Position numbers and translations under genes: made by a program. Positions 34,602 to 62,207 of a DNA stretch of 64,000 nt are shown here, piece after piece. The stretch is from an uncultured bacterium (GTDB taxonomy: Bacteria; Babelota; Babeliae; Babelales; Babelaceae). Location of the stretch: NCBI GenBank assembly GCA_963848965.1, contig CAWKFG010000001.1, positions 544,001-608,000 of the forward strand, in the 5' to 3' direction. Within the stretch, counting starts at the first letter, position 1. Each line of letters begins with the position of its first letter. The notes under the pieces are model-generated. The model saw only the letters and a program-made list of their open reading frames with translations, did not search any database and had not been told where the DNA came from.

Positions 34602-34997
34602 CTATTTTATTCTTTTCTCTGTGCTTTTAAGAAGCTCTATTATTTCTTTATCGCCATAGTCCGCAGCATACATTAAAGCCGTTTTACCATTATTATCTTT
34701 AGCATTAACATCTACTCCTGCATTGATGAGCATTTCTACTATATCTTTACTTCCTACGGCTGCTGCCCATATTAAAGCAGTATAACCATTACCATCTTGA
34801 GTGTTAACATTTGCTCCTTTATTAAGAAGCATTTTTACTATATCTTTATGTCCTCTTAAATGAGTAGTAAATTGAACAAGCTCTTTTTGAAGCTCTTGAG
34901 GTAAAAGGTCTAGATACGTCTCTGGCTGTATTTCTGACTTCATACTTACGGTATAGGTGCTCCAGCTTAGCATTAGTATAATCCATACCTTCTTCAT
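34602..34997 (-). CDS. F-box-like/ankyrin family member with an in-frame internal deletion
   Basis: TYLDLLPQELQKELVQFTTHL fused directly to RGHKDIVKML; helical domain missing. Confidence 0.8.
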   Translation of the reverse strand: MKKVWIILMLSWSTYTVSMKSEIQPETYLDLLPQELQKELVQFTTHLRGHKDIVKMLLNKGANVNTQDGNGYTALIWAAAVGSKDIVEMLINAGVDVNAKDNNGKTALMYAADYGDKEIIELLKSTEKRIK

Positions 34998-35086
34998 AAT
35001 TTCCTTATGTCTTTTATTTATTGGTTCTCCCATTTGAATATTATGGTCAAAATCTCTTCTTTATAAATCTTCCGTATACTTATTCT

Positions 35087-35473
35087 TTATTTTGTATGAT
35101 TAAATTTCTCTAAATACTTTAAGAGGATTTGATAGTAAATATCACCTTCTTTACTTAAAGAAGTTGCTCCTGGCATTGAAGCTTTAGACTGCGTAAAGCG
35201 TCGTGCAGATTGTTTAATTCTATTAAACAGTTCTCGGCTTTCTGCAGAAAGAGCATGGCGTAATGTTCTTGGTGCTGGAGTCACTGCTTGGTATCCTCCT
35301 TCAGATTTATAATAGGATAGGTACTCCTTAAACTTTTGTAGTTCCTGAGGATGTGCTTGTGCAAAATTATCAATAGCTCTTTGAGTATCATATAAAACTT
35401 TAGAAAGAGATTCTCTACTAAAAGTTTCTCCAGCTGAAAGTATACATATACCTAAGATAAAATTTTTATACAT
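35087..35473 (-). CDS. Secreted hypothetical protein
   Basis: Signal-peptide-like N-terminus; AAGGGA RBS. Confidence 0.65.
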   Translation of the reverse strand: MYKNFILGICILSAGETFSRESLSKVLYDTQRAIDNFAQAHPQELQKFKEYLSYYKSEGGYQAVTPAPRTLRHALSAESRELFNRIKQSARRFTQSKASMPGATSLSKEGDIYYQILLKYLEKFNHTK

Positions 35474-35783
35474 ATTATCCCTTTCTTTTTTTTGCCTATA
35501 CTATAGTACCATACTAAATTATTTTATAGCCAAATTGCAATATTTGAATGGGTGACAAGGAGAGCTTAGGCAGGCTATAGTAATCTGCATTATTATGAAA
35601 TGTAGCACCGTTTTGACTGGCGGGCATCGGCTATCATAAGCAATTTTATTATAGTTCTATTTTGCTGTCTGGCATAATCTAAAGCAGTCATATTTTTACT
35701 ATGTACAACTGGTACTTCGGTTTGCTTTTTTATTTCTTAGCATCGGGAATAGAAATACTCCACTAACATGCTACTATTATTTT

Positions 35784-36815
35784 TTACTGTTTTGCTCCAT
35801 GCTTCTTAAGCAATTCTACTATTTCTTTATTCCCACATTGTGTAGTAATCATTAAAGCAGTATAGCCGTATTTATCTTGAACATTAACATCAGCACCTGC
35901 ATTGATGAGCATTTCTACTATATCTTTGCTCTCATCATATACAGCAAATATTAAAGCAGTTTTTCCATCTTTGTTTTGAGCGTTAACATTTGTGCCCTTA
36001 GCTATAAGTAGTTCTGCAACATCCTTGTGCCCTTTGCACAAAGCATCCATGTAATGTCCCCTTCTATACACAGCATCCATAAAAGGAGTTTTATCATATT
36101 TATCTCGAGCATCAATATTAGCACCATAAGACAGAAGTATTTCTATTATATCTTTTTGACCAGCTCGAGCTGCCCAGTGTAAAGCTGTATGCCCAAGGTT
36201 ATCTGCGTGATGAATATTTGCCCCAGCCTTAATAAGCGTTTCTGTTATATCCTTATGGCCTTTTTGGGCAGCTCGATGTAATGCAGTAAGACCATACTTA
36301 TCTTGAGCATTACTATTAATACCTTTAGATAAAAACTCTTGTACTGTGTTTATATCTCCTTTTTCTGCTGCATCTATAAACTCCCGTTGCCTTAAAGACT
36401 CTAAAGCGCCTGAAGTATTTAATTCTTGTGCTATATTTTTTAGTTCTTTAGAAGGATCTTTGCTAGATAATTCACTAATAAGGATACGATTAAAATTAGG
36501 GCTGTTGAAAAAGAACGCTAAATCTTTATCGTTGGATAAAGTTTGCAGCGCATCTATGGCATTAGTATAGTCTTGTGTCTTTATAAGCTCTAATTGTTGT
36601 TGTAAGGTATTAAGAGCTTGCGAACTTTTAATGTTTGCAGCTTCCCTTATTCCTTGCAACAACTCATCGATAGTAAGAACATTGCTTAAATTAGTAGTAA
36701 ATTTAACAAGTTCTTGCTTCAGCTCTTGCGGTAAGAGTTTTAAATAGCTCTCAAGCTGCATTGCAGATAAAGGAAGGCTATATCCTATTACCAGAGCTAT
36801 CATTATTTTCTTCAT
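35784..36815 (-). CDS. F-box-like/ankyrin family member
   Basis: Signal, MQLESYLKLLPQEL, FNSPNFNRIL, ELNTSGAL, about 6 ankyrin repeats. Confidence 0.9.
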   Translation of the reverse strand: MKKIMIALVIGYSLPLSAMQLESYLKLLPQELKQELVKFTTNLSNVLTIDELLQGIREAANIKSSQALNTLQQQLELIKTQDYTNAIDALQTLSNDKDLAFFFNSPNFNRILISELSSKDPSKELKNIAQELNTSGALESLRQREFIDAAEKGDINTVQEFLSKGINSNAQDKYGLTALHRAAQKGHKDITETLIKAGANIHHADNLGHTALHWAARAGQKDIIEILLSYGANIDARDKYDKTPFMDAVYRRGHYMDALCKGHKDVAELLIAKGTNVNAQNKDGKTALIFAVYDESKDIVEMLINAGADVNVQDKYGYTALMITTQCGNKEIVELLKKHGAKQ

Positions 36816-37017
36816 TAGATTGTCTTTCAAATATCTTTATTCTACAAATTTCTTGTTCTTCCACAATTTAAATAATCCAAATTTTATAAAAATTAATTTT
36901 TATTGCATGTTTATGTTCAATTTAACTTGATTTTGGTAAAAATGCAATAATTGTGATGTTTAAGAGATGATGCATTGTTCTGCTAGATAAACACGGGTTG
37001 TAAGAAGTAGTTTTATT

Positions 37018-37337: not shown

Positions 37338-38363
37338 ATGAAAAAACTCATATTAGTAGTGCTAGGATGGTCTGTTTCTACTTTTAGTATGCAGCCTAAA
37401 ACCTATTTAGATATTCTATCGCAACAGCTTCGACAAGAGATTGTTAAATTTATCACTGACCCACAAGATGTTTTTGCTTCAGAAAACGAAAACATAGCAA
37501 AAGAATTAAATACTTCAGGCGCTCTAGAATCTTTAAGGCAACGAGAGTTTATAGATGCAATAGAAAGCGAAGATATAAAAGCAGTAAAGGACCTTTTAGC
37601 TGCAGGTATTAATAGTGATGCTCAAGATATCTATTACGGGCTTACCGCTTTGCATTGGGCTGTTGGAAGAGAAAACAAAGAATTAGTAGAGGTGCTTCTA
37701 TCATTTGGCGCTAATGTTAATGCTAAAGATGTATATACAAATACTGCTTTAATGGATGCTGCAGAAAGTAGTAAGCATATATTTGTTACAGACGTTAATG
37801 CTAAGAATAGACATAAAGATATAGTAGAAATGCTTATCAATGCAGGTGCTGATATTAATGCTAAAGATGGATATGGTTATACTGCTTTAATGAAAGCTGC
37901 ATATAAAGGAAATAAAGCAGTAGTAGAATTGCTTCTGTTATCTGGCTCAGATGTTAATACTAAAAATAGTTTTGGCAATACTGCATTAATGCGTGCCACT
38001 AAATATATATATGGTAATAAAGACGTAGTAGAAATGCTTATCAATGCAGGTGCCGATGTTAACGCTAAAGACAACTATGGTAGAACTGCTTTAATGTTTG
38101 CTATATTGTTTATCAATCATAGCAGTATAGTAGCGCTACTTATAGCTAAGGGCGCTGATGTTAATGCTCAAGATGGAATTGGCAATACAGCTTTAATCTA
38201 TGCTGCAGACGATGGCAATAAAGATATAGTAAAAATGCTCATCAATGCAGGTGCTGATGTGAATGCTAAGAATAATGATGGTCAAACTGCTTTAATGGCA
38301 GCTAAGCATCGAGGCCGTAAAGAAGTAGAAGAGCTTCTTAAAAGACAAGAAGCAAAAGAATAA
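37338..38363 (+). CDS. F-box-like/ankyrin family member with a shortened helical domain
   Basis: MQPKTYLDILSQQL, then jumps to ENIAKELNTSGAL; about 8 ankyrin repeats. Confidence 0.9.
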   Translation: MKKLILVVLGWSVSTFSMQPKTYLDILSQQLRQEIVKFITDPQDVFASENENIAKELNTSGALESLRQREFIDAIESEDIKAVKDLLAAGINSDAQDIYYGLTALHWAVGRENKELVEVLLSFGANVNAKDVYTNTALMDAAESSKHIFVTDVNAKNRHKDIVEMLINAGADINAKDGYGYTALMKAAYKGNKAVVELLLLSGSDVNTKNSFGNTALMRATKYIYGNKDVVEMLINAGADVNAKDNYGRTALMFAILFINHSSIVALLIAKGADVNAQDGIGNTALIYAADDGNKDIVKMLINAGADVNAKNNDGQTALMAAKHRGRKEVEELLKRQEAKE

Positions 38364-38761: not shown

Positions 38762-39959
38762 ATGAAAAAACTATTAATTATAGTGTTAGGGCGGTCTGTT
38801 TTTACCATAGGTATGCAGCCTGAGACTTACTTAGATGTCTTACCACAAGAGCTTCAAAAAGAACTTATTCAATTTACTACTAGTTTACAAGACATACGTA
38901 CTTTTGAAGAGTTACAAGAAAAACTAAATGAAATACAACAAAAGGCTGTGCATCTTAAGAGGCTTTCTTCTTTAGTACAAGCTCTTAACAACCTACAACA
39001 GCAACTAAAATATATAAAGAATGCAAACTATACTAATGCTTTAGCTGCGCTGCAAACTTTATCCAAAGATAAAGAATTAGAGTTCCTTTTTAATAATCCT
39101 GATTTTAATCGTATTCTTATTAGTGAATTATATAATTCTTCAGCGCCAGAAAATATATTAAAAGATCTAAATACTCCTGGTGCTTTAAAATGGTTGAAGC
39201 AACTAGAGTTTATAGATGCAGCAGGGAAAGGAAGTGTAAAAGCGGTAAAAGAGTTTTTAGATGCAGGCATTAATAGTAATGCTAAAAACAAAGATGGTTA
39301 TACTGCTTTAATATATGCTACATCTAATGGCTACAAAGATATAGTAAAGCTACTTCTAGCTAAGGCAGATATTAACGCCAATAACTATGGGACCGCTTTA
39401 CACCGAGCTGCTGTAGCTCGGCATAAAGATATAGTAGAGATGCTTCTTAATAAAGGAGCAAATGTTAACGCTCAAGATGGTTTTGGCAATACTGCTTTAA
39501 TAATAAGCTGCGTTGGGACATAAAGATATAGTGGAACTACTTATAAATGCAGGCGCAGATGTTAATGCCCAAGGTTATTGCGGTAAAACAGCTTTAATAG
39601 AAGCTGTGCAAAGAGGAAATAAAGAAATAGTAGAAATACTCATTCAAGCAGGAGCAAATGTTAATGCTCAAGATTATGAAGGTCTTATTGCTTTAATAGA
39701 TGCAGTAAATAATGGACATAAAATTATAGTAGAGATGCTTCTTAAGGCTGGTGCAGATGTTAATGCTAAAGATAAGATTGGACGTACAGCTTTAATGTAT
39801 GCCGCTTTGCACGGACGCAAAAGCATAGCAGAACTACTCATTAAAGCTGGTATTGATGTTAACGCTCAAGATAATGATGGCCAAACTCCCTTAATGATTG
39901 CTATACAAAGAGGGGATAAAGAGATAGCAGAACTACTTAAAAAACATGGAGCAGAATAA
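38762..39959 (+). pseudogene. F-box-like/ankyrin family member split by a frameshift near 39500
   Basis: ORFs 38762..39523 and 39513..39959 join into one continuous ankyrin array ending ELLKKHGAE. Confidence 0.85.
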
Positions 39960-40043: not shown

Positions 40044-40099
40044 GTTAAATTTTAAACAGAGAATGGTCAAATTTTGAACAGTTGGTGGTCAAATTTACG
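40044..40099 (+). promoter_or_regulatory. Three direct repeats with a 22-bp period before the ATPase start
   Basis: GTTAAATTTTAAACA (40044), GTCAAATTTTGAACA (40066), GTCAAATTTACGATG (40088). Confidence 0.7.
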
Positions 40100-41329
40100 A
40101 TGTTTCATAGAAATATAAAAGAAAAACTAGAAAAAGCTCTTTCCTTTAGCCCTGTTGTGCTACTTACAGGAGCGCGTCAGACAGGGAAGTCAACCTTAAT
40201 GACAGCAATTGCGCAAGAGCATAAATACTCCTTCCATACTTTTGATAGCCTAACAACATTGGCAGCAGCATCGAGTGATCCTTCTGGCTTTATAGCTGGT
40301 ATCCAAAAACCAGCAATTTTAGATGAAGTTCAACGAATACCAGAGATATTTTTACCTATAAAGCATGAAGTAGATCAAAATAGGCAGCCTGGGCAGTTTG
40401 CTCTTACTGGATCTGCAAATCCACTCCTTATTCCCACACTTGGCGATACCCTTGCAGGCAGAATAAGTATTTTAGAATTGTTTCCTCTGTCTCAAGGAGA
40501 ACTTTTAGGCGTTTTTGATGATTTTATAGATTTTGTATTTGGTGATACATATCCAGCTATAACTAGAATCGCAAGAAAGGATCTTATAGAAAAAATAATG
40601 GTTGGAGGCTATCCAAATGTTCAATTACTAGATGAGGAAATGCGAGATCAGTGGTTTGATAATTACATTACAACTGTTTTAAAGCGCGAAGTAACAGAGC
40701 TTGCAAAAATTGAAGGCATAGTTGAGTTTCCTCAATTATTGCGCCTTTTGGCAACACGTGCGGGAACTATTTTAAATGTCTCAGAACTTTCTCGTGCAAG
40801 CATGCTGGTTAACACTACACTTCGTCGCTACCTTGCACTTCTACAAACCGTATTTCTAGTGAACTTTTTACCTTCATGGGGTATTAATTTAAGTAAGCGA
40901 TTGGTGAAATCTCCAAAAGTATATCTTGTAGATACCGGTCTCCTGAGCTATTTATTGGGTATCAATCATGATAGACTTTCTGTCGATGTCACCCTAGTGG
41001 GCAATCTCTTTGAAAACTTCGTAATAATGGAGCTCAAAAAACAAGCGACCTGGTCAAAACGACGTGTTAATCTTTATTATTATCGAACACTGGATGGTAT
41101 TGAAGTTGATCTTGTACTAGAAGATAAGGCAGGAAACATTGTAGGCATTGAAGTAAAAGCATCAGAAACAGTAACTGCTGCAGACTTTAAGGGTCTTAAA
41201 CATATGCAAGAAACCTATAAAAATAGATTCCTAAAAGGAATTGTATTATATGCAGGCAGTGATAATGTTCCTTTTGGCAAAAAACTCTTTGCATGGCCTC
41301 TCTCCTGCCTGTGGGCAAAACCTGCTTGA
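40100..41329 (+). CDS. AAA_14 ATPase with a DUF4143 nuclease-like C-terminus
   Basis: GARQTGKS, ILDEVQ, LTGS, GGYP, KSPKVYLVDTG, FEN, EVDLV..IEVK. Confidence 0.9.
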   Translation: MFHRNIKEKLEKALSFSPVVLLTGARQTGKSTLMTAIAQEHKYSFHTFDSLTTLAAASSDPSGFIAGIQKPAILDEVQRIPEIFLPIKHEVDQNRQPGQFALTGSANPLLIPTLGDTLAGRISILELFPLSQGELLGVFDDFIDFVFGDTYPAITRIARKDLIEKIMVGGYPNVQLLDEEMRDQWFDNYITTVLKREVTELAKIEGIVEFPQLLRLLATRAGTILNVSELSRASMLVNTTLRRYLALLQTVFLVNFLPSWGINLSKRLVKSPKVYLVDTGLLSYLLGINHDRLSVDVTLVGNLFENFVIMELKKQATWSKRRVNLYYYRTLDGIEVDLVLEDKAGNIVGIEVKASETVTAADFKGLKHMQETYKNRFLKGIVLYAGSDNVPFGKKLFAWPLSCLWAKPA

Positions 41330-41420: not shown

Positions 41421-42248
41421 ATGAAGAAAGCACTAGTTATAGTACTCCTAGGATGGTCTATTTCTCTAGTGGGTATGGAGCCTAAAACTTATTTAGATCT
41501 TTTACCTCAAGATCTAAGGCAAGAACTTGCTAAATTCACTACTACTTTAGAAGGCATATATACTTTTGATGAGTTACAAGAAAAACTAAGTGAAATACAA
41601 CAAAATGCTGTGCATCTTAAGAGTCCCTCTTCTTTAGTACAAGCTATCAATAACCTACAACAGCAACTAAAGACTATAAAGAATGCAAACTATAGTAATG
41701 CTATGGCTGCATTACAAGTTTTATCCAAGGATAAAGAGTTAGAGTTTCTTTTTAACAATCCTGATTTTAATCGTATTCTTATAGATGCATTACAGCAAGA
41801 GAACTATACTGAAAAACTAGAAAATATAGCAAAAGCTCTTGGTACTCCAGGTGCTTTAGAATACTCAAGGCAATTACAATTTATAAAAGCAATCAAAAAA
41901 GGAGATATAAAAGCTGTAAAAGAGTTTTTAGATAAAGGTATTAATGTTAATGTTAAAGATGGGGTCAGCAATACTGCTTTAATGATTACTGCCGAAAAAG
42001 GACATAAAGATATAGCAGAATTACTTTTAGCTGCAGGCGCAAATGTTAATGCTAAAGACATAGGTGGTTCTCCTGCTTTAATGCTTGCCGCTTTGTACGG
42101 AAGTAAAAGCATAGCAGAGTCACTCATTAAAGCAGGAGCAGATGTTAATGCTCAAAATGTCCGTGGCAGAACAGCTTTAATGCATGCTGCGGACTATGGC
42201 TATAAAGAAATAGTAGAACTACTTAAGCATCATGGCGCACGGAAATAA
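41421..42248 (+). CDS. F-box-like/ankyrin family member
   Basis: Signal, MEPKTYLDLLPQDL, FNNPDFNRIL, about 4 ankyrin repeats. Confidence 0.9.
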   Translation: MKKALVIVLLGWSISLVGMEPKTYLDLLPQDLRQELAKFTTTLEGIYTFDELQEKLSEIQQNAVHLKSPSSLVQAINNLQQQLKTIKNANYSNAMAALQVLSKDKELEFLFNNPDFNRILIDALQQENYTEKLENIAKALGTPGALEYSRQLQFIKAIKKGDIKAVKEFLDKGINVNVKDGVSNTALMITAEKGHKDIAELLLAAGANVNAKDIGGSPALMLAALYGSKSIAESLIKAGADVNAQNVRGRTALMHAADYGYKEIVELLKHHGARK

Positions 42249-42903: not shown

Positions 42904-43890
42904 TTAAGAGATCATTTTGCTCCATGCTTTGAGAAGCTCTACTACATCTTTATCTCCGCGAAAAGCAGCTATGATCTCAGCGGTATTACCGTCTTTATCT
43001 TCAGCATTAATATCAGCACCTGCATATATAAGTAGTTCTACTATATCTTTTTGTCCCTTTTCAGCAGCAAGCGTTAAAGCAGTATCTCCATTCTCATTTT
43101 GAACATTAACGTCAGCACCATGGGTTATGAGCATTTTTACTATATCTTTACTTCCTGCGGTTGCTGCCCATATTAAAGCAGTATTGCCATACTCATCTTG
43201 AACATTAACGTTGGCACCTCTAGCTAGTAATAAAGATACAACTTCTTTATGTCCGTTCTTTGCAGCTTCACGTAAAGCAGTCCTGCCGACTACTATATCA
43301 TCTTGAGCATTAATATTAACACCAGCATCTAAAAAGTCTTTTACTGCATTTATGTTTCCTTTTTCTGCAGCATCTATAAATTGTAATTGTCTTAGATATT
43401 TAAGAGATCCTAGTGTATCAATTTCTTGTGTTATGTTTTCTGGTGCTTTAAAAGGATTTTTATAATATAATTCACTAATAAGAATTTGATTAAAATCAAG
43501 ATTATTAAAAAGGAATTCTAAATCTTTATCTTTGGATAAAGTTTGTAGCGTAGCTAAGGCATTATCATAATCTGCATTCTTTATAAGCTCTAGTTGGTCC
43601 CATAGGTTGTTAAGAGCTTGTATTAAACGAGAAAGACTCTTAAGATGCACAGCTTTTTGCTGTATTTCATTTAGTTTTTCTGGTAACTCATCAAAAGTGT
43701 TTATGCCTTCTAAATTAGTAGAGAATTGAATAAGTTCTTTTTGAAGCTCTTGAGGTAAAAGCTTAAGATAGCTTTCTCGTTCTTGAGCTGGAAGCTCCTC
43801 TGAAGGCGTAGGCCATAGCGATGAGGGATCCTCCATGCTATATATATTGATACAAAACATTACAAACGCTATCCATATTGTTCTTTTCAT
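42904..43890 (-). CDS. F-box-like/ankyrin family member
   Basis: Signal then MED; SYLKLLPQELQKEL; about 5 ankyrin repeats. Confidence 0.9.
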   Translation of the reverse strand: MKRTIWIAFVMFCINIYSMEDPSSLWPTPSEELPAQERESYLKLLPQELQKELIQFSTNLEGINTFDELPEKLNEIQQKAVHLKSLSRLIQALNNLWDQLELIKNADYDNALATLQTLSKDKDLEFLFNNLDFNQILISELYYKNPFKAPENITQEIDTLGSLKYLRQLQFIDAAEKGNINAVKDFLDAGVNINAQDDIVVGRTALREAAKNGHKEVVSLLLARGANVNVQDEYGNTALIWAATAGSKDIVKMLITHGADVNVQNENGDTALTLAAEKGQKDIVELLIYAGADINAEDKDGNTAEIIAAFRGDKDVVELLKAWSKMIS

Positions 43891-44668: not shown

Positions 44669-46114
44669 TCATTGCAAAGCATATGATAAAATCGACACAT
44701 CTGTATTGTTTTCTTGAGCATTTATAAGTAGTTTTACTATCTCCTTGTAGCCGAAGGATACTGCCCAATCTAAAGCAGTTTTACCCTCTTCATCTTGAGC
44801 ATTAATATTTGCACCAGCTGCTAGAAGTAGTTCTACTACATCAGCATTCCCTTTATTTACAGCAAATATTAGAGCAGTTTGTCCCATACATTTTACATTA
44901 ACATCAGCTCTTGCAGCTATATACATATCTACTATCTTCTTATATCCTCCATGTATAGCCTCTATTAAAGCAGTCCAGCCATTATTACTTTGAACATTAA
45001 CATTTGCGCCTGCAGCTATAAGCATTTCTACTGTATCTTCATATCTCTCTCTTGCTGCAATTATTAGAGCAGTCTGGCCATTTATATCCTTCGCATTAAC
45101 ATCTGCCCCTGCATTTATAAGCATTGCTGCTATCTCATTATGACGATCTAAAGCAGCATGAATTAAAGCAGTATCACCATATTTATTTGCAGAGTTAACG
45201 TCTGCCTTGGCTTTAAGAAGCAATTCTACTATATCTTTGTGTCCAATAGTTACAGCACGCATTAAAGCAGTAGAGCCATTCTCATTTTGAACATTAACAT
45301 TTGCGCCTGCAGCTATAAGCACTTCCACTATCTGTTTATATCTAAGCATCTCTGCCATATCTTTATACACACGGTCTACTGCACCTATTAAAGCAGTCCG
45401 GCCATGTAGATTTTTCGCATTAACATCTGCTCTTGCATTAATGAGCAGTTCTACTATTTCTTTGAATCCACTACCAGAAGCATACATTAAAGCGGTTTGG
45501 CCATTTAAACCACGAGCATTAACATTAGTACCTTTATCTATCAGCTCTTTTACCTTTTGTGTATCCCCTTTTTCTACTACCTCTAGAAATTCAAGGTACC
45601 TTGCAAGCTCTAAAGCTCTGGCAGTAGCCAAATTTTCTGCTATATTTTTTGGTCCCACACCTAGTTCTTCAGCATTTGATTTATGCCAGAGGCTATCTAC
45701 AAGAATACGGATAAAATTAGGATTATTAAAGAAGAATTCTAACTCTTTATCTTCTGATAAATCCTTTATTAAGGCTAATGCATTAGTGTAATTTTCTCTC
45801 TTTATTTGCCATAAACGATCTTCCAATCTTTCAAGAACCTCTGCTGAAAGAGATGCTCGAAGAAGAGAAATCCCTTGTATTTCTTCTAACTTTCTCAACA
45901 GCCCATTAATTGTATTAACATCAGATGAACCACATAGGTTAAAAAGAAATGTAACGAGCTCGTTTTTAAGTTCTTGAGGCAAAAGGCTTAGGTATGTTTG
46001 TTCCTGCTTTCCTTTTTTTTCGGCTTGTTCTTTAATGTCTTCGCTTTCTTGCTCCATTGTTAGAGTTGTGATACTCCATCCTATTATAAGCATCATTATT
46101 ATTGTTTTCTTCAC
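44669..46114 (-). CDS. F-box-like/ankyrin family member, long
   Basis: Signal then MEQ; TYLSLLPQELKNEL; about 9 ankyrin repeats. Confidence 0.9.
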   Translation of the reverse strand: MKKTIIMMLIIGWSITTLTMEQESEDIKEQAEKKGKQEQTYLSLLPQELKNELVTFLFNLCGSSDVNTINGLLRKLEEIQGISLLRASLSAEVLERLEDRLWQIKRENYTNALALIKDLSEDKELEFFFNNPNFIRILVDSLWHKSNAEELGVGPKNIAENLATARALELARYLEFLEVVEKGDTQKVKELIDKGTNVNARGLNGQTALMYASGSGFKEIVELLINARADVNAKNLHGRTALIGAVDRVYKDMAEMLRYKQIVEVLIAAGANVNVQNENGSTALMRAVTIGHKDIVELLLKAKADVNSANKYGDTALIHAALDRHNEIAAMLINAGADVNAKDINGQTALIIAARERYEDTVEMLIAAGANVNVQSNNGWTALIEAIHGGYKKIVDMYIAARADVNVKCMGQTALIFAVNKGNADVVELLLAAGANINAQDEEGKTALDWAVSFGYKEIVKLLINAQENNTDVSILSYALQ

Positions 46115-47643: not shown

Positions 47644-48012
47644 TCAGAAAGCAAAACTCGCCTGGCTTAATGTATTCAGTTCTATTATACCAGAAGCTAA
47701 AAAGTCTTTTACAGCTGCAACATTGCCTTCCTTTACGGCGGTTATAAAATATTCTTGCCGCAGATATTCGCGTGCTCCTGGCGTATCAATCGCTCGTGCT
47801 ACTTTTTCTGCATTAGCATATCCTTTTCTATAAAAAAGAGACCTTGCAAAAATACGAATAAAATCAGGGTTATTAAAAAAAGATCCTAGTTTTTTGTCTT
47901 GAGATAATTGTTTTATGATAGCTAATGCATTATCATATTTTGCATTCTTTATCTGCTCTAATTGCTGTTGAAGATTATTAAGGGCTTGAGTAAAACCTAA
48001 TAAACTAAACAT
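47644..48012 (-). pseudogene. Internal fragment of an F-box-like/ankyrin gene
   Basis: QALNNLQQQLEQIKNA..FFNNPDFIR..TPGAREYLRQ..; no signal peptide or F-box, truncated at the first ankyrin. Confidence 0.8.
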
Positions 48013-48138: not shown

Positions 48139-49164
48139 TTATTTTGCACCATGCCTTTTAAGAAGCTCTACTATCTCTTTATATCCACATTGTGTAGTAA
48201 TCATTAAAGCAGTATAGCCATATTCATCTTGAGCATTAACATTTGCACCAGATTTAATAAGCATTTGAACTATATCTTTATGTCCATACAGTGCAGCATA
48301 CCTTAAAGCAGTTCCGCCATATTTATCTTTAGCATTAACATCGGCACCCTTAGCGATAAGCATTTGTACTATATCTTTATATCCACGAGAAGCAGCATTC
48401 ATTAAAGCAGTCTGACCATACACATTTTTAGCATTAACATCTGCACTAGCTTTAAGAAGCATCTCTACTATTTCTTTGCGCCCTTTTTCGGCAGCAAACC
48501 ATAAAGCAGTATTGCCTTTATTGTCTTTAGCATTAACATTTGCCCTATGAGCTAGAAGTAGTTCTGCTATATCTTTATGTCCAATAGCAGCATACATTAA
48601 AGCTGTCCAGCCATCATTATCTTTAGCATTAATATCAATACCTTTATCTAAAAAGTCTTTTATAGCTTTTACATCTCCTTTTTCTGCAGTCTTTAAAAAC
48701 TCTAATTGCTTCAACCATTCTAAGGCACCAGAAGTATTAAGCTCTTTTGCTATGTTTTCTGGATTCTTCAAAAAAAGGTTCTGCTGCCAAAGTACAGATG
48801 TAAGAATGCGATTAAAATTAGGATTATTAAAAAGGAACTCTAACTCTTTATCGTTAGACAAAGCTTGCAGTGCAGCTAAAGCATTAGTATAGCTTGCTGT
48901 CTTTATAAGTTCTAGTTGTTGCTGTAGGTTATTGATAGCTTGTATTAATGAAGAGAGACCTTTAAAATATGCTGCCCTTTGTTGTATTTCACCTAGTTTT
49001 TCTTGTAACTCTTTAAAAGTCTGTATGTCTTGTAAACTAGTAGTGAATAGAATAAGTTCTCGTTTAAGGTCTTGAGGTAAAAGTTCTAAATAACTCTGCG
49101 GTTCCATACCTAGAATAGAGATAGACCAGCCTAGTAGTAGCGCTAACAATCTTTTTTTAATCAT
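48139..49164 (-). CDS. F-box-like/ankyrin family member
   Basis: Signal, MEPQSYLELLPQDL, about 6 ankyrin repeats. Confidence 0.9.
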   Translation of the reverse strand: MIKKRLLALLLGWSISILGMEPQSYLELLPQDLKRELILFTTSLQDIQTFKELQEKLGEIQQRAAYFKGLSSLIQAINNLQQQLELIKTASYTNALAALQALSNDKELEFLFNNPNFNRILTSVLWQQNLFLKNPENIAKELNTSGALEWLKQLEFLKTAEKGDVKAIKDFLDKGIDINAKDNDGWTALMYAAIGHKDIAELLLAHRANVNAKDNKGNTALWFAAEKGRKEIVEMLLKASADVNAKNVYGQTALMNAASRGYKDIVQMLIAKGADVNAKDKYGGTALRYAALYGHKDIVQMLIKSGANVNAQDEYGYTALMITTQCGYKEIVELLKRHGAK

Positions 49165-49376
49165 CTTATTCCTTTTATTATAGCATTTTATAGTAATCAA
49201 TTATACTTAAAGATTGTCTTTTGACCAGAAGATAATATTTTTTAAACTCTTATTTTATGCTAATTCTTTAAAAACCAACACTTGTATTAAAGACTAGGAA
49301 TGCATTAGTTTAATGCTCAAGAAATATCTTGTAGAAGAATTATTTTGAGCTAAGTGGCACAAAAGTTAAGTTAATT

Positions 49377-49901: not shown

Positions 49902-50909
49902 TTAACCCTTTGCTCCATGCTTCTTCAGTAATTCTACTATATCTTTAGCTCCTGTGTCTGCAGCCTCATGCAAAGCAGTTCTACCTTCGTTATCCTTTAC
50001 ATTAACATCAGCTCCTGATGCCAAGAGTATTTCTACTAGATCTTTACGGCGATATTGTACAGCAAGCATTAAAGCAGTTCGGCCATATTTATTTTGGCTA
50101 TTAACCTCTACACCTGCTTTAAGTAGTATTTGAACTATACCTTTAGGTCCTAATGCAGCTCGATGTAAAGCAGTAGAGCCATTATTATTTTTAGCATTAA
50201 CATCAGCTCCTGCCTTTATAAGCATTTCTACTATATTTGTATGTCCTTTTTCGGCAGCCCAATGTAAAGAAGTAAGACCATACTTATCATGAGCATTAAC
50301 ATCTGCTCCTGCATTGATAAGCATTTCTACTATATCTTTGCTTTCATCATATACAGCAATCATTAAGGCAGTACGTCCATTTATATCTCTAGCATTAACA
50401 TTAATACCTTTATCTAAAAAGTCTTTTACAGCTTTTATATCTCCTTTTGTTGCAGCAGCAATAAATCGTTTTTGCCTTAAGTATTCTAAAGCTCCTGGAG
50501 TATTAAGCTCTTGTGCTATATTTTCTAGTTCTTTAGAAGTATCTTTGATAGATAATTCTCTTATAAGAATACGATTAAAATCGAGATTGTTAAAAAGAAA
50601 TTCTAACTCTTTATCCTTGGATAAATCTTGTAGCGCAGCTAATGCATTATCATAGTTTGCATTCTTTATCTGCTCCAATTGCTGTTGTAAGGTATTAAGG
50701 GCTTGAGTAAAAGAAGATGAGCTTGAACGCTCTGCTGCTTCTTTTAATTTTTGCAATAACTCATCAATAGTAAAAACATTGCTTAAATTAGTAGTAAATC
50801 TACTAATCTCTTGTCTTAGCTCTTGCGGTAGGAGTTCTATATAAGTCTTCTGTTCCATTCCTAAGGTAGAAACATACCATCCTAGTACTATAACTAATAA
50901 TTTCTTCAC
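49902..50909 (-). CDS. F-box-like/ankyrin family member
   Basis: GTG start, signal, MEQKTYIELLPQEL, about 6 ankyrin repeats. Confidence 0.9.
   Translation of the reverse strand: MKKLLVIVLGWYVSTLGMEQKTYIELLPQELRQEISRFTTNLSNVFTIDELLQKLKEAAERSSSSSFTQALNTLQQQLEQIKNANYDNALAALQDLSKDKELEFLFNNLDFNRILIRELSIKDTSKELENIAQELNTPGALEYLRQKRFIAAATKGDIKAVKDFLDKGINVNARDINGRTALMIAVYDESKDIVEMLINAGADVNAHDKYGLTSLHWAAEKGHTNIVEMLIKAGADVNAKNNNGSTALHRAALGPKGIVQILLKAGVEVNSQNKYGRTALMLAVQYRRKDLVEILLASGADVNVKDNEGRTALHEAADTGAKDIVELLKKHGAKG
50391..50642. repeat. 252-bp perfect inverted repeat, arm 1
   Basis: Reverse complement matches 57447..57698 base for base by manual alignment. Confidence 0.9.
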
Positions 50910-51217
50910 TTTCTTTCTCCACAATTATTATCTCACATCTATAATTATTTATATTAGTAATTATAATACATAAATTAAAATAAAAGCAATAGTTATAGTG
51001 TTATCAACCTTTTCGATCAGCTCAATGAGAAACAGCAGCCAAACAAATCCCATGTCATATTTCTATACCTTACCAATCATAGCTATAGAGCAAGCTGCTC
51101 TGAAGTAGATATTAGTACCAATTATTATGATTTCCTTGAAATAGGGATAGTTATATAGTATTATGTCCTTATAAGAGAGAAATAATTTATAACTTTTATC
51201 CCCTTACAAAGGAAAAA

Positions 51218-55209: not shown

Positions 55210-56050
55210 ATGAAAAGGATACTAGTTGTAACACTCGTAGGATGGTCTATCTCTATTCTAGGTATGGAGCCTAAAACTTATTTAGAACTTTTACCTCAAG
55301 ATCTGAGGCAAGAGCTTGCTAAATTCACTACCAATTTAGAAAATGTTTTTACTATTAAGAAGTTACAAGAAAAACTAGGTGAAATAGAACAAAGAGTGGT
55401 GCATCTTAAGGGTTTATCTTCTTTAGTACAAGCTCTTAATACCTTACAACAACAATTAGAGCTTATAAAAAATGCAAAGTATGAAGATGCATTAGCTTTA
55501 ATAAAAGAATTATCTCAAAATAAAGGATTAGAATCCTTTTTTAATAATCCTGATTTTATTAGAATTATTATACACACGCTATGGCCTAAAGCACTTAGGG
55601 AAGGAAAGTACAACATTCAAGAAGGAAATATAGCACAAGAGCTTAATACACCAGGAGCTTTAGAATACTCAAAGCAATTACAATTTATTAAAGCAGCACA
55701 TAAAGGAGACATAAAAACAGTGCAAGAATTTTTAAGTAAAGGTATTAATGTTAATGCTAAAGCTATCCTTGGCACCACTGCTTTAATGTCTGCTGGATAT
55801 GGTAGGAAAGATATAGTTCAAATGCTTCTGGCGCATAAAGCAGATGTTAATGCTCAAGATCACAGTGGGCAGACTGCATTAATATATGCTGCATTGCGTG
55901 GAGATAAAAATATAGTAGAAGTGCTTATAGTGCAAGGGTGCAGATGTTAATGCTAAAGATAATGATGGTCATACTGCTTTAACGTGGGCAGCTACTTATG
56001 AACATAAAGATATAGTAGCATTGCTTAAAAAGCACGGGTCTAAAGAGTAA
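55210..56050 (+). pseudogene. F-box-like/ankyrin family member with a +1 frameshift near 55937
   Basis: After CAAGGGTGCAG the shifted frame gives [37 protein letters not shown]. Confidence 0.85.
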
Positions 56051-56339: not shown

Positions 56340-56879
56340 ATGATATACAAGTACTCTCTGACCCTTGCTCTTCTTGGTGCTTTTGCTTCCAGCTATAGCA
56401 TGGAACACATGAACCAACACTTAGAAAATCTAAAAAGGCTTGATCCTGAAGGAGTATATGCGTTTATGCACACTCTTATTTTATATTATAGTAATGATAT
56501 AGAAGCTCTCTATCAATCACAAAACATTGAAACCTCGTATCTTAAGTCATTACCATTAGATCTTAACCGAGAACTTATGTGCTACAGAATTCTTGCTATG
56601 TTAGAGGATTTCGATAGGTTCCGCATGCTAGACAACAGTGATATCGTAGCATACCTTACAACAGCACTTACTAGTATCAATCCTCGCATACCATTTCAAC
56701 TTCTTGGCCTACAAAATAATGCTTCTGCAGCAGAAATAGCGACAGCATTTAAGCAACTTGCTCGCCAATGGCACCCGGATAAACATACAAGAAGTACCGA
56801 AAAAGAAAAAGAGCTCGCAATTGCTCGTTTTAAACTTTATAATGCTTGTAGAGAGTTTTGCTTATTAAGAGCACAATAA
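56340..56879 (+). CDS. Secreted F-box-like + J-domain protein
   Basis: Signal then MEH; SYLKSLPLDLNREL; LLGL..ASAAEIATAFKQLARQWHPDK. Confidence 0.85.
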   Translation: MIYKYSLTLALLGAFASSYSMEHMNQHLENLKRLDPEGVYAFMHTLILYYSNDIEALYQSQNIETSYLKSLPLDLNRELMCYRILAMLEDFDRFRMLDNSDIVAYLTTALTSINPRIPFQLLGLQNNASAAEIATAFKQLARQWHPDKHTRSTEKEKELAIARFKLYNACREFCLLRAQ

Positions 56880-57155
56880 TCTCTATTCTTTTATATTATT
56901 GTCTTCCCTGTTTATTATCAGTCTTAAAGCTGTATTGCCACCTATACCTCGAACCTTTTTAACTCATAGGCTAACTGGTGATGAAGAAATAAGTTAATAT
57001 GGCAATACTAATCATCCGTCAATAAAACTGTAATACTTTTTTCATAAATTAATTCAAATAATTAATATAATTGACTTATGTTGACATAAATTGTTATGTT
57101 AAAAAAAATTTATCAGCTAAATTTTTACATAAAAAGATAAAAATAATTAAAGGAT

Positions 57156-58093
57156 ATGATAATGAAAAAGATACTAGTAGCTGGAGTAATAATAGGATGG
57201 TCTGTTTTTACCGTAAGTATGCAGCAAAAGACGTATTTAGATATTTTACCACAAGAGCTTAGACAAGAACTTGTTAAATTTACTACTCATTTAAAAGGTA
57301 TACATACCTTGTATGAGTTACCAGAAAAACTAAGAGAAATACAACAAAGGGCGGCACAGCTTAAGAGTTTCTCTTCATTAGTACAAGCTATCAATAACCT
57401 GCGGCAGCAATTAGACCTTATTAAGACTGCAAACTATGATAATGCTTTAGCTGCGCTACAAGATTTATCCAAGGATAAAGAGTTAGAATTTCTTTTTAAC
57501 AATCTCGATTTTAATCGTATTCTTATAAGAGAATTATCTATCAAAGATACTTCTAAAGAACTAGAAAATATAGCACAAGAGCTTAATACTCCAGGAGCTT
57601 TAGAATACTTAAGGCAAAAACGATTTATTGCTGCTGCAACAAAAGGAGATATAAAAGCTGTAAAAGACTTTTTAGATAAAGGTATTAATGTTAATGCTCA
57701 AGATGTTAGTGACTATACTGCTTTAATAATAGCTGCAGCTCATGGAGATAAAGATATAGTAAAGATGCTACTTGCATCCGGTGCTGATGTTAATGCTCAT
57801 GATAAGTATGGTCTTACTTCTTTACATTGGGCTGCCGAAAAAGGGCATAAAGAAATAGTAGAGATGCTTCTTAAGGCAGGTGCAGATGTTAATGCTCGAG
57901 ATATGTATGGCCGTACAGCTTTAATGATTGCTGCAAATGATGAAAGACACAAAATATAGCAGAAATGCTTATCAATGCAGGAGCAGATGTTAATGCTCAA
58001 AGTAATGATGGTCAGACTGCTTTAATGTTTGCTACTGAAAAGAATTATAAAGATATAGTAGAACTACTTAAGCGTCATGGCGCACGGAAATAA
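57156..58093 (+). pseudogene. F-box-like/ankyrin family member with a -1 frameshift near 57952
   Basis: The shifted frame continues NIAEMLINAGADVNAQSNDGQTALMFATEKNYKDIVELLKRHGARK*. Confidence 0.85.
57447..57698. repeat. 252-bp perfect inverted repeat, arm 2
   Basis: Matches the reverse complement of 50391..50642. Confidence 0.9.
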
Positions 58094-58204
58094 AAATTCA
58101 ATTTACTAGAAAACTGTATACTTCCCTACTTTTGAAGGAGGCCATACATATTTCTTGCTATGTATAAAATGTATCAAATCAGCAGTATGAGGAATCTTAT
58201 TAGT

Positions 58205-59446: not shown

Positions 59447-59857
59447 GATTTTCCTTATCGAGAATTGAGATCTTACGTGCTGTTTAATAAGCCTATAGCT
59501 TTATCATTTCTACAAATGGGCTGTATCTTTACTTAAAAAGCTAGCACCGTACTTTTGAAGAAGCTCTACAACGTCTTTGTGCCTTCCTCAGGATGCATTA
59601 ATAAACATACTGCCACTGTCAAAACTACTTTATTCATATCTAAAAATACCTTTGATTAACTATTTACAGTTTTATATTATATAACAAATAGGAAATATGC
59701 GCAAATCGTTCTTTTATGCCCTAAAATTGGTAATCACTCTTGTCTTTTCATTCCTAGATTTAGTTATTCTTAGGCAGCATAATTATAGTATACTTGAAAT
59801 ATAAAGTTAATATATGATATTTTATAATAAAATAATAAAAGTTAAAGGAAAATTATT

Positions 59858-60304
59858 ATGAAGACATCTTTTATTAAAGCTTGTATACTGCTGACAACCT
59901 TTTCTTCCGTATACGGCATGGAAAAAATTAAGGAAAAACTATTTCCTAAAAGCAAAGAGAAAAGAGAACGGCCGGCAGCAGAACTTCCTCTAGAAGAGCA
60001 AATTCAGAACGAATTTACCAAAAGAGCTGCAGTTGCACATGGACAAGGAAGAAATATGAATCAAGACGACCTTATGCTTATTTTCTTTCCCTTGCGCCCA
60101 AGTCTTGCACAGGAACAGCGGGTAACAGTTGAAGTAGTCGATACTATTATAGGACAAATTAAAAAGCATTTTCCAGATTGGTCACTTGATAAAATACATG
60201 ATCTCTTAATACAGTATCTTCCAACACGCGAGTTTACCTATTTTAATAATTTTCTTTCGCGCAGGATTAAAAAATACAAAGCTAGCAAGATCAATGGTGC
60301 GTAA
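59858..60304 (+). CDS. Secreted hypothetical protein, paralog of the next gene
   Basis: Signal then MEK; DDLMLIFFPLRPS and PTREFTYFN align with the neighbour. Confidence 0.75.
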   Translation: MKTSFIKACILLTTFSSVYGMEKIKEKLFPKSKEKRERPAAELPLEEQIQNEFTKRAAVAHGQGRNMNQDDLMLIFFPLRPSLAQEQRVTVEVVDTIIGQIKKHFPDWSLDKIHDLLIQYLPTREFTYFNNFLSRRIKKYKASKINGA

Positions 60305-60320
60305 TAGGAGGCCTAAAACA

Positions 60321-60827
60321 ATGACTAGAGCTCTATCTTTCATCATTACAAGTAACTTCTTGCTACTCATCCTTTGTCACTCTTATACATCTACAATGGA
60401 ACCTATGAAAGAAGAGCCATCAACTTCGCGTTTATACGCTCTGCCTCCAGAGCTCAGAGCACAGACACTTCTTACTACTATAATGAAAGAACTTCAATCA
60501 AAAATGGGCCGTAAAATGTTAATGAGAGCACATAAAGCACTTGCTCCTCATGAAGAGCCACAACTAGAGTTAGATGAAGACGATATTCAATTTATCATCG
60601 CAAAATTGCAACCCTCTTTTTCTCATAAGGATTTTTCTACTTCGCGTACCATTGGCACGGTACTTTCTAGACTTGCTCCTTATTATAAAGGATCCCTCAA
60701 AGAACTTGGCCTCAAGATTAAGGAAGGGTTTCCTGAGAAAGAATACCCATTCTTTAACCAAGCTCTTCAAGAATGGTTGAAGGAACAAGCGGCAAAAGAG
60801 ACACAATCTTCTCAAAGTAGATTATAA
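60321..60827 (+). CDS. Secreted protein with an F-box-like motif
   Basis: AGGAGG RBS; signal then MEP; LYALPPELRAQTL; DDIQFIIAKLQPS, PEKEYPFFN. Confidence 0.75.
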   Translation: MTRALSFIITSNFLLLILCHSYTSTMEPMKEEPSTSRLYALPPELRAQTLLTTIMKELQSKMGRKMLMRAHKALAPHEEPQLELDEDDIQFIIAKLQPSFSHKDFSTSRTIGTVLSRLAPYYKGSLKELGLKIKEGFPEKEYPFFNQALQEWLKEQAAKETQSSQSRL

Positions 60828-60924
60828 CAACAAGCTTTCTATAGTTGCATCATAAAAAATAACAGATATACTTAAGAATATTAATTAATATTCTAATAAA
60901 TAATCTAAATACATTTGGTCTGTT

Positions 60925-61314
60925 ATGAAAATATTATTTTTTCTATCTATATTATTACTTAATGTAATTTACGCTCAGGCTATGGATACAGCAAAAGCGG
61001 TTAATTCTCAAAAGCCACTTACTATTCTCCATATTATTGATAATACAAAAACTACTGGTGGTGAGAATGCGGTAACCATTGAACATAAGACTGCAGCATC
61101 CTACTGGGGGCCTATGATATATGATTGCCCCATTCAAGACATAGTAGATATCCCTCTTTTTAAACGTGATATTGTAAGGGTCTATGGCCCAGGGGGAGTT
61201 TCTCTTCTTACCTATTGCCCTACAGGCAAATTCTCTCGTGTAAATCTTATCATTGGCAAAAGTAAAAAAAGTACTAAGATTGTTTTTGTACAAAACAAAG
61301 AGGACCTTCATTAA
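60925..61314 (+). CDS. Secreted hypothetical beta-rich protein
   Basis: Signal ending AQA, then MDT. Confidence 0.7.
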   Translation: MKILFFLSILLLNVIYAQAMDTAKAVNSQKPLTILHIIDNTKTTGGENAVTIEHKTAASYWGPMIYDCPIQDIVDIPLFKRDIVRVYGPGGVSLLTYCPTGKFSRVNLIIGKSKKSTKIVFVQNKEDLH

Positions 61315-62207
61315 GTATATTTTTTAAGAAGTTCTATTATATCTTTAAATCCAGACATTTTGGCAGGCGTTAAAGCAGTATTGCCTTTATTGTCTTTAGC
61401 ATTAACATCAGCACCATGAACTATAAGCATCTCTACTATAGCTTTATTTCCCCCAGATGCAGCTACTATTAAAGCAGTATTGCCATACTCATCTTGAGCA
61501 TTACCATCTGCACCAGATGCAAGTAGCATCTTTACTATATCTTTATATCCATTAGATGCAGCTTTCATTAAAGCAGTATCACCAGTTATGTCTTGAGCAT
61601 TAACATTTGTTCTATGAGCTAGAAGTAGTTCTACTATGTCTTTATAACCAAAAACTACTGCTCTCATTAAAGCTGTTTGATTAGTATTACTATTTACTTT
61701 AGCATTAACATTTATTCCTTTATTGAGAAAATCTTCAACTGCTTTAACATCTGCTTGGCCAACAGCCTTTAAAAATAGCAACTCTGTTGGACGACGTTGT
61801 AACCAGAGTGCAGCACCTGCTGTTTTAAGATCCTTTGCAATATCATCCTGCTTTTTAATATCATATCTTGTGTGGTAATCGTTAATCTTGATTACTTTAT
61901 ATTTCTTCTGCAGCTCATCTAATAGAGATTCAGTAAAAGGAATATCTTCAAAGAGGGTAGCATATTCTTGCTTTTGTGCGAGCTCTTGTATCTTATGTAA
62001 TGCCTCTGTGTATTCTAAGTCTTTTATAAGTACATGAATTACAAGAGGATTCAGTAAATTCTTAAGATCTTGCGGCAATAAACTTAAATAACTCGTCTCT
62101 TGCTTGCTTTTCTTATGCTCTCTTTCTTCTGCCATCTCAGACTCATGCTTCATACCTATAGCATTAAAACAGAAAGCTATGAGTAGAATATATAATACTT
62201 TAAACAT
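61311..62207 (-). CDS. F-box-like/ankyrin family member
   Basis: SYLSLLPQDLKNLL, LKTAGAALWL, about 5 ankyrin repeats. Confidence 0.9.
   Translation of the reverse strand: MFKVLYILLIAFCFNAIGMKHESEMAEEREHKKSKQETSYLSLLPQDLKNLLNPLVIHVLIKDLEYTEALHKIQELAQKQEYATLFEDIPFTESLLDELQKKYKVIKINDYHTRYDIKKQDDIAKDLKTAGAALWLQRRPTELLFLKAVGQADVKAVEDFLNKGINVNAKVNSNTNQTALMRAVVFGYKDIVELLLAHRTNVNAQDITGDTALMKAASNGYKDIVKMLLASGADGNAQDEYGNTALIVAASGGNKAIVEMLIVHGADVNAKDNKGNTALTPAKMSGFKDIIELLKKYT

Follow-up and report, generated by a model that had tools for sequence, protein, structure and literature searches.

Sequence exchange and decay in a clustered family of putatively exported ankyrin proteins from an uncultured Babelaceae bacterium

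The ankyrin gene cluster and its products

The window analysed here is a 64,000-nucleotide (nt) stretch from an uncultured Babelaceae bacterium (assembly GCA_963848965.1, contig CAWKFG010000001.1, hereafter C1; C1:544001-608000), and its subject is a family of ankyrin repeat genes that occupies 13 loci on both strands between 34.6 and 62.2 kb. The genome is small (1.73 Mb in five contigs, ~37% G+C) and of an intracellular type, most likely that of a protist-dependent member of the Dependentiae. Among relatives of its zwf, the best named match, from a Dependentiae metagenome-assembled genome, is 37% identical, which agrees with this placement without deciding it. Extra copies lie at positions 3680-4666 of the window and at C1:608790, just beyond its end. 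The members in the window, named by their first position, are 34602, 35784, 37338, 38762 (with 39513), 41421, 42904, 44669, 47644, 48139, 49902, 55210, 57156, 61311 and 3680, and they form one family. The first-pass annotation of this DNA had counted 13 copies plus one, with a single internal fragment (47644), and this count is correct. Paralogous copies have exchanged sequence, their ankyrin arrays are no longer collinear and a number of them are decaying.

The typical protein starts with MKK followed by ~15 hydrophobic residues and G/S-M-E/Q, a putative Sec-type leader (signal-like N-termini were judged throughout by a crude hydrophobicity rule). Next come the motif SYLxLLPQEL(R/K)QEL..F, a helical domain of ~100 residues (FLFNNPDFNRIL ... 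LNTPGALE(Y/W)L(R/K)Q), a capping repeat, three to nine ankyrin repeats and a C-terminal ELLKKHGAK cap. The helical domain is itself built of a ~45-residue module (...ALxxLxxLxxxKxLxxxFxxPxFxxxL), which is doubled in some members (e.g., 3680-4666). In these proteins, only the ankyrin repeats are recognised by Pfam, with matches at 13 of 14 loci (E 1e-15 to 1e-70; 38762/39513 counted as one) and none in fragment 47644. The six most variable columns of the repeat are 3, 4, 6, 11, 14 and 15, and they include the five that correspond to surface positions randomised in designed ankyrin repeat proteins (DARPins), in agreement with the earlier proposal that the varying residues make up the ankyrin binding face.

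At least seven copies, distributed over both strands, are intact and full length. Full-length members include 35784..36830 (minus strand), in which one repeat is broken, 41421..42248 (plus; 275 amino acids, aa), 42904..43890 (minus; 328 aa), 48139..49200 (minus), which served as query sequence and as the subject of structure modelling, and 49902..50924 (minus). The longest member, 44669..46114 (minus; 481 aa, ~9 repeats), is the most divergent of the cluster; 61311..62207 (minus; 298 aa) is likewise divergent and has a shortened N-terminal domain (N-domain). The outlying member 3680..4666 (minus; 328 aa) combines a leader, YLALLPQEL, a duplicated helical module and ~3 repeats. Every full-length copy is equipped with a start codon and leader of its own and with AT-rich sequence upstream, including a purine-rich stretch ahead of the start; in two pairs of copies the upstream sequences are clearly related. 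An Rfam scan of the window gave no match.

Six of the 13 clustered loci are damaged or shortened. Three carry 1-nt frameshifts: 38762..39959 (plus), a single member split into open reading frames (ORFs) 38762-39523 and 39513-39959; 55210..56050 (plus), shifted near 55940 so that the C-terminal repeat and cap lie in another frame; and 57156..58090 (plus), shifted near 57955. The remainder of each of these genes is readable in another frame. No long homopolymer coincides with any of the frameshifts, and the housekeeping ORFs that fill the 34 kb upstream look undamaged. The internal fragment 47644..48012 (minus) consists of the helical domain only. Two further members have lost most of the helical domain in frame: 34602..35033 (minus), a short gene whose leader and LLPQEL are fused straight to the middle of a repeat (RGHKDIV...) and followed by ~2.5 repeats, and 37338..38363 (plus), which has 7-8 repeats with irregular junctions and a degenerate motif, YLDILSQQL, with LS in place of LP. 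All 13 plus one copies belong to one family, but the full set of parts is wanting in 34602 and 37338, as well as in 47644, which is without leader, motif and repeats.

Beyond the window, a single N-domain query in phmmer matched 20 of the 4877 ORFs of the genome and an N-domain profile found 27 places in it, while of 150 further genomes of the order only 7 gave matches to the same profile, all weak and partial. When 1.84 billion representative proteins were searched exhaustively by profile, 59 were retrieved at E<=1e-3, 15 of them from this genome and 44 external. The external relatives are 22-52% identical (52% for P0011), and P0029, encoded on a 58.5-kb contig, is >=90% identical to C4:452319; 36 of the 44 have ankyrin repeats, and the order of leader, motif, helical domain and ankyrin repeats is kept in most of the 59. 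A word-based homolog search with the N-domain had returned four proteins, all from this genome, which reflects the limited sensitivity of that search, as the exhaustive one found more. In total, 159 ankyrin ORFs were detected in the genome with a repeat model derived from the family.

Sequence exchange between copies and loss of register

The most extensive shared sequence joins 49902 and 57156. Nine successive 30-nt windows are identical at 30 of 30 positions (an exact tract of 252 nt, at 50391-50642 and 57447-57698), after which one repeat drops to 19-20/30 and is followed by a second exact tract of 59 nt (50245-50303 and 57786-57844) with flanks matching at 58/90 and 64/90. Outside these tracts the two genes are ~65-75% identical, with 19-23 of 30 positions matching in 10-codon windows, and the best DNA alignments between paralogs reach 72-84%. 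Exact matches between genes number 482 at 12 nt and fall roughly geometrically to 13 at 24 nt; only those of 35, 38, 41, 59 and 252 nt stand clear of this geometric tail. Exact runs of 35 nt and 38 nt are common to 35784 and 48139 and to 61311 and 48139, respectively, and 35784 and 49902 have AVYDESKDIVEMLINAGAD in common (53/57 nt). The nine peptides earlier quoted as recurring in different genes were all located in the genes named, save that AALxGxKSIAExLIKAG belongs to the 3' part of 38762 that the frameshift places in ORF 39513. At the DNA level their cores are 84-100% identical (>=93% in eight of nine) and the 16 of 18 flanks with a length of 45 nt or more are 54-73% identical, the two others being shorter right flanks at 48% (29/60) and 78% (35/45). 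The long shared pieces are real shared tracts.

The shorter pieces were compared with a null model that combines a per-column rate of codon identity with a per-unit-pair similarity (89 units, 3723 between-gene unit pairs, 200 simulations). Runs of at least 8 and at least 9 identical codons occur 12 and 8 times, against 15.8 and 6.4 expected, which is no excess. For runs of at least 10 codons there is a modest excess (7 observed, 2.9 expected; 0.015 of simulations), and for the run of 19 codons the value is 0.025. Since the model gives no excess at 8 or 9 codons, short pieces such as QDEYGNTALI and AADYGxKE are not individually beyond chance. Several of them are 10 residues long with only three or four truly variable positions, and are expected anyway from a conserved consensus and biased codons. 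The earlier placing of junctions in the conserved TAL, KDIV and VNA codons is tentative at best, because a recombination junction can be located only to the nearest stretch that is identical in both parents. The phrase "half-repeat resolution" in the first-pass annotation is thus a fair description of the pattern and goes too far as a mechanism, with codon runs barely above the null and a negative recombination test on repeat units (see below).

The two copies of the 252-nt tract (minus strand at 50391-50642, plus strand at 57447-57698) are mutually inverted, at a distance of 6.8 kb; a crossover between the two would flip the segment that carries the ATPase gene 51218 together with two ankyrin genes, 52655 and 55210. 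A public soil run contains short, low-depth contigs that are identical to the window and account for 7% of the sampled words. In 49902, one of these contigs runs across the 252-nt tract's 5' border (50410-50692); in 57156, another spans the divergent repeat together with the 59-nt tract (57709-57859). They lend weak support to the assembly, because the run may be its source sample, and the depth of this single run with matching contigs is unfit to reveal alternative mosaics. A further contig that seemed to join 43033 to 61497 was rejected, as it matches over 30 letters on one side, has long unmatched ends and probably comes from another paralog or organism.

Recombination is also evident in the N-domains. 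The pairwise homoplasy index (PHI), computed for 12 N-domains over 471 gap-free nt with 246 informative sites, gave z values of -6.8, -5.9 and -5.8, and none of 2000 permutations was as low. The nearest paralog of 41421 shifts along the N-domain, from 55210 (90-93% identity) at the 5' end to 38762/42904 and then to C1:608790. In segment trees, 49902 and 57156 are sisters with support of 99/99 in the 3' segment and are not sisters in the 5' segment. The genome encodes recA. Exchange between paralogous copies is thus observed, and the earlier description of a mosaic family is borne out by the 252-nt and 59-nt tracts together with the PHI result on the N-domains.

Within the ankyrin arrays, positional register has been lost. 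Among nine core paralogs, units compared in register are no more similar than units compared off register (amino acid identity 0.531 versus 0.524), and the same codon is used for the same residue at nearly equal rates (990/1447, 0.684, in register; 3252/4816, 0.675, off register). The corresponding rate in the N-domains of the same paralogs is 0.737 (2401/3259) and the expectation from codon usage 0.469. Nucleotide identity of units is 0.646 between clustered genes, 0.637 within a gene and 0.598 between clustered and dispersed genes. The best matches of the two halves of a unit lie in the same unit in 0 of 69 cases and in the same gene in 5 of 69, and a highly similar unit pair does not predict similarity of the next unit (0.649 versus a background of 0.625). 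The arrays are therefore not collinear descendants of one ancestral array. A repeat pool that neighbouring genes mix by exchange would account for this loss of register, and so would independent growth of the arrays together with saturation; synonymous sites, compared from repeat to repeat, are close to saturated.

Several unrelated genes lie among the ankyrin genes. An AAA_14/DUF4143 ATPase is encoded at 40082..41329 (plus) and further copies at 46321-47637 and 51218-52531. The first two are 84% identical over 1.28 kb and in direct orientation, and such copies may provide extra homology for rearrangements of the cluster. The ORF 58205-59446 (minus; 413 aa) begins with hydrophobic residues and ends in a MYND zinc finger (Pfam E 7.5e-11), which is typically a eukaryotic domain. 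A 699-aa ankyrin protein from outside the family, with a leader and a long acidic stretch rich in Ser, Asp and Glu, is encoded at 52655-54754 (minus). Upstream of the cluster, a 134-aa ORF at 31969-32373 (minus) by eye resembles a PIN-domain (VapC-type) toxin and is putative.

The leucine-proline module

The motif that follows the leader has the consensus [ST][YF]LxxLPx[ED]L[RK]xE[LI]xx[FY], with a helix on each side of the Leu-Pro (LP) pair. It was found by hmmsearch in 54 ORFs of this genome, among which 48 have a signal-like N-terminus, 36 have ankyrin repeats and 46 have the proline within the first 80 residues. A 26-column profile of the motif matches 52 places in this genome and one to three places in each of 11 of 150 other genomes. 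Counting from the proline (P), the 54 motifs have a hydrophobic residue at P-5 (49), P-4 (54) and P+3 (54), Leu at P-1 (53), the proline itself (54) and Glu at P+6 (39), with mostly Arg or Lys at P+4 and a conserved Leu at P+7. Two carriers of the motif in the cluster are not family members: 56340..56879 (plus), with a leader, the motif SYLKSLPLDL and a DnaJ domain, and 60294..60827 (plus), with a hydrophobic N-terminus, the motif RLYALPPELRAQ and no known domain. Among 20 other LP-motif proteins of the genome, a Pfam search recognised ankyrin repeats in 15 and no F-box at E<=1.

An AlphaFold2 model of 48139 (predicted local distance difference test score 83) places a short helix, the LP pair and then a long helix that would open a three-helix bundle. 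Foldseek returned no match at E<=0.001 for either of two models, and none at all for the 58-residue one. A wide VIA-align search gave generic helical bundles (best Z 6.8), and look-alikes in the ESM Atlas reached 0.81-0.84, with one F-box cluster at 0.81, values within the range of shuffled sequences and so no more than a lead. The Foldseek and VIA-align searches were uninformative, and neither listed an F-box.

The first-pass annotation had read LLPQEL as an F-box that recruits host Skp1 and the Skp1-Cul1-F-box (SCF) ligase, so that each copy would send its own ankyrin-bound host protein to degradation. The order of domains, an N-terminal LP-helix and then repeats, agrees with such a function, and F-box proteins are reported in Dependentiae in the parts of PMC4378268 and PMC4776705 that we consulted. 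A broad motif profile built from 50 sequences aligns over 27 positions with the F-box of FBXW7 ("RDFISLLPKELALYVLSFL...") at E 0.16, rank 4 of 177,635 PDB sequences, and this alignment is longer than that with REV1 and scores higher for a single domain (14.4 versus 9.8 bits). One external relative (P0047) gives an F-box-like E of 0.0083 over 44 residues, and relatives in another genome have more F-box-like helices (LPPEIKEMIIRQL), with one PRANC match at E 0.11. The latter helix occurs in two tandem paralogs (G152:C1:1027378-1030827) that have a leader, the LP motif LPPEIKEMIIRQL and a helical domain and are without ankyrin repeats. However, PF00646 and PF12937 match none of the family even with the limit set at E<=10, six-frame searches of the genome with these models gave four and six sub-threshold matches, none in the family, and F-box-like similarity below threshold appears in 1 of 38 motif segments of this genome and 2 of 44 external relatives. 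Motif segments match the ubiquitin-binding motif (UBM) family most often, and a conserved third helix with Trp is absent. In helix 1 of an F-box the positions corresponding to P+4 and P+6 are hydrophobic, and here they are mostly Arg/Lys and, in 39 of 54 motifs, Glu. The Skp1 model PF01466 matched in none of the 261 genomes of the phylum, and it matched in none of the control genomes either, which makes this search uninformative. We regard the F-box reading as doubtful.

A UBM would instead couple ubiquitin or ubiquitinated host proteins to the partner bound by the ankyrin repeats. The 26-column profile matches the UBM of HUWE1 ("PSFLAALPDDIRREVLQ", E 0.03, 16.4 bits) and both UBMs of REV1 (E 0.041); six of its ten PDB matches at E<=10 are UBM proteins and none is an F-box protein. 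With the broader profile the top PDB match is REV1 (E 0.0044). UBM is the commonest Pfam family over the motif segments (7 of 38, best E 0.011), and all but one of the genome's 12 UBM matches below threshold fall on the motif. The signature of Leu-Pro with the contact residues P-5, P-4, P-1, P, P+3 and P+6 is present in the motif set, and, in the part of PMC8468184 that we consulted, the ubiquitin-contacting residues of REV1 and DNA polymerase iota (Pol iota) coincide with the conserved P-5, P-4, P-1, P, P+3, P+6 and P+7. The predicted arrangement of a short helix, LP and a second helix in the AlphaFold2 models is likewise compatible with a UBM. The N-domain profile also retrieves, at E 1.4e-5 among 1.84 billion proteins, an otherwise unrelated, signal-bearing protein of 263 aa (P0041), in which LNRFLxxLPEDLRQEV is repeated five times in tandem and which Pfam recognises as UBM at E 7.5e-13; this protein comes, however, from a 1.6-kb contig. 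The best family match (17.5 bits, E 0.0068) stays below the PF14377 cut-off of 23.3 bits, searches with PF14377 also match in 11 of 14 control genomes, and the motif is short enough for a protein with leucine-rich repeats (LRRs) to rank first with the 26-column profile. In addition, the second helix is predicted to run into a three-helix bundle, whereas a UBM is a free 30-residue unit. A UBM is accordingly a tentative identification, and we hold it to be doubtful in the same degree as an F-box.

A different possibility is that the motif acts as an export, sorting or host-targeting signal behind the signal peptide, in the manner of PEXEL or RxLR. Its position near the N-terminus (no further than residue 80 in 46 of 54, and preceded by a signal-like N-terminus in 48 of 54) and the variety of what follows it (ankyrin repeats in 36 of 54, DnaJ, or no known domain) would suit such a role. 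On the other hand, a similar motif is C-terminal in three tandem paralogs of another genome, the likeness to the helices of UBMs and F-boxes points to an element that folds and binds protein, and no bacterial precedent is known to us; we consider a signal of this kind distinctly unlikely. The paralogs concerned (G098:C1:280748-283819) are small proteins with a leader, ankyrin repeats and a C-terminal "LPxDLQKxII" at the position that PRANC occupies in poxvirus proteins, and they have no Pfam F-box or PRANC match.

We conclude that the LP module belongs to the type of LP-helix element that UBMs and helix 1 of F-boxes have in common. A link to the host ubiquitin system is plausible, because Dependentiae are rich in ubiquitin-related genes (PMC4378268, consulted in part) and 13 of 261 genomes of the phylum have ORFs with a ubiquitin domain that exceeds the Pfam cut-off. 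The present genome has one such ORF, partial and at 29.8 bits, ~16 kb before the window (C1:528245-528370), and in one other genome of the phylum (G237:C9) two adjacent ORFs have very ubiquitin-like domains (96-97 bits). A more far-reaching proposal would be that the module, present in 54 ORFs here and in at least 44 protein clusters elsewhere, defines an undescribed class of Sec-exported adaptors that dock ubiquitin or Skp1 and draw their arrays from a shared, exchanged repeat pool, the cluster making up a re-sorted library of binders. We think this rather unlikely.

Origin of the repertoire and comparison with known systems

The explanation that we favour, with a probability of roughly 0.7, is that of a clustered family of Sec-signal-bearing, effector-type ankyrin proteins shaped by duplication, gene conversion, loss of register and decay and not by a programmed system. 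The sequences show that tandem duplication multiplies the genes, that ectopic gene conversion or unequal recombination between paralogs exchanges tracts, at least once very recently (252 + 59 nt), that repeat turnover within arrays has gone on until positional register was lost, and that copies decay by frameshift and deletion. The diversity would then be a by-product of ordinary homologous recombination together with selection and drift. Tandem paralogs, pseudogenes and discordant tracts, as expected of a birth-and-death family with gene conversion, are all present. The proteins are probably exported, their ankyrin face may bind host proteins, and the LP module might dock to a common partner of the ubiquitin system, either Skp1, if F-box-like, or ubiquitin, if UBM-like.

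Several results weigh against this explanation or parts of it. Within the arrays, codon runs beat the null only at 10 or more codons (7 versus 2.9), and PHI on 35 complete repeat units gave no signal (p 0.96-0.99); given these two results, the loss of register could partly reflect independent array growth or saturation. The segment trees, proposed earlier as a check on mosaicism, are discordant for 49902 and 57156, as described above, but none of the approximately unbiased (AU) tests is significant at 0.05: forcing the two genes together in the 5' segment is not rejected (p=0.073), the tests of four other clades are likewise not significant, and the choice of clades to test was made with the data already in view. 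Errors of assembly could account for the three frameshifts. Export is putative and read from the crude hydrophobicity rule, which 48 of the 54 motif ORFs pass, and the link to the ubiquitin system draws on sub-threshold similarity only.

If there had been no exchange, the shared pieces would be coincidences of conserved consensus and codon bias, or assembly chimeras. In keeping with this, the null model explains most long runs of identical codons, PHI on the repeat units is negative, and same-codon identity is already 0.47 from codon usage alone. An exact 252-nt tract in a pair that is otherwise ~65-70% identical cannot arise by chance, however, PHI on the N-domains is significant, and identical contigs of the public run, which may be the source sample, cross two tract borders. 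The absence of exchange is refuted for the N-domain and for 49902/57156; most of the short ankyrin pieces may still have arisen without it, but as a general account it is highly improbable.

Programmed diversity, whether by cassettes moved into an expression site (of the msp2, vlsE or pilS type) or by assembly as in variable lymphocyte receptors (VLRs), is extremely unlikely: the mosaic pattern agrees with it and the partial copies 47644 and 34602 could in principle be donors, but these look like decay products. Most copies are complete and bring a start codon, a leader and AT-rich upstream sequence of their own; both strands carry them, their mutual identity is only 72-84%, and no dedicated recombinase was found among the 20 window ORFs scanned. 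One expressed full-length gene with promoterless partial donors is not what the cluster presents. The suggestion of a library put together like VLR cassettes finds no support in the same arrangement of self-contained copies on both strands or in the damage or shortening of 6 of the 13. Ordinary RecA-type gene conversion suffices, recA being present, and the finding reveals no new mechanism of diversification.

Under the favoured explanation of duplication, conversion and decay, the locus is a clean example of how a repertoire is generated, through tandem duplication, very recent conversion, loss of register and decay, in a group, the Dependentiae, that devotes a tenth or more of its small genomes to exported ankyrin proteins. 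A short conserved N-terminal motif in 54 putatively exported proteins offers a concrete handle on how such effectors plug into the host. A bacterial UBM, if true, would be new, and if the module docks ubiquitin or Skp1, the cluster would amount to a natural, re-sorted library of ubiquitin-linked binders of host proteins. Narrow literature searches, made without subscription journals, found no description of the N-terminal motif, the helical domain and the UBM-like signature together, and the motif with its helical domain and the UBM-like signature seem to be undescribed.

Short LP-helix modules that engage host SCF are combined with ankyrin repeats in Legionella AnkB and in the ANK/PRANC proteins of poxviruses and Orientia. 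The present family differs in having no F-box or PRANC profile match; AnkB, moreover, lacks a Sec leader and is secreted as a type IV substrate, and PRANC lies at the C-terminus. AnkB is mentioned in the part of PMC4776705 that we consulted. The UBMs of REV1, Pol iota and HUWE1 (PF14377), the best PDB matches of the profile, resemble the LP module in the Leu-Pro between helices, the flanking hydrophobic residues and Glu at P+6, but they are known from eukaryotic nuclear and ligase proteins and not from exported bacterial proteins, and the family matches are sub-threshold.

Expansions of exported ankyrin proteins are a described hallmark of Dependentiae (PMC4378268, PMC6561590, PMC4776705, each consulted in part). 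Babela massiliensis has 126 ankyrin proteins, 79 of them with signal peptides (PMC4378268), and Chromulinavorax destructans has 98, 78% with signals (PMC6561590). As in the present genome, ankyrin proteins are many and mostly signal-bearing there; they lie partly in genomic islands and are thought to be exported effectors (PMC4378268, PMC6561590). The difference is that the consulted parts of these reports describe neither an LP motif with a helical domain nor mosaic evolution. The F-box/BTB and LRR families of Parachlamydiaceae (Domman et al. 2014, PMC4209131, consulted in part) are similar in being large, lineage-specific families of repeat effectors with ubiquitin-related N-terminal modules, birth-and-death evolution and pseudogenes. 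In those families profiles do recognise the F-box, the repeated units are LRRs, secretion is of type III and the consulted part reports no convincing recombination, whereas the family described here has no F-box profile match, ankyrin repeats, a Sec-type leader and clear recombination in its N-domains.

Gene conversion between paralogs is a textbook process, and the family resembles it in its identical tracts within diverged paralogs, the shifting nearest relative, the greater exchange among clustered copies and the presence of recA. From this process it differs in nothing essential: homogenisation is partial, so that features of conversion and of birth-and-death evolution are found side by side.

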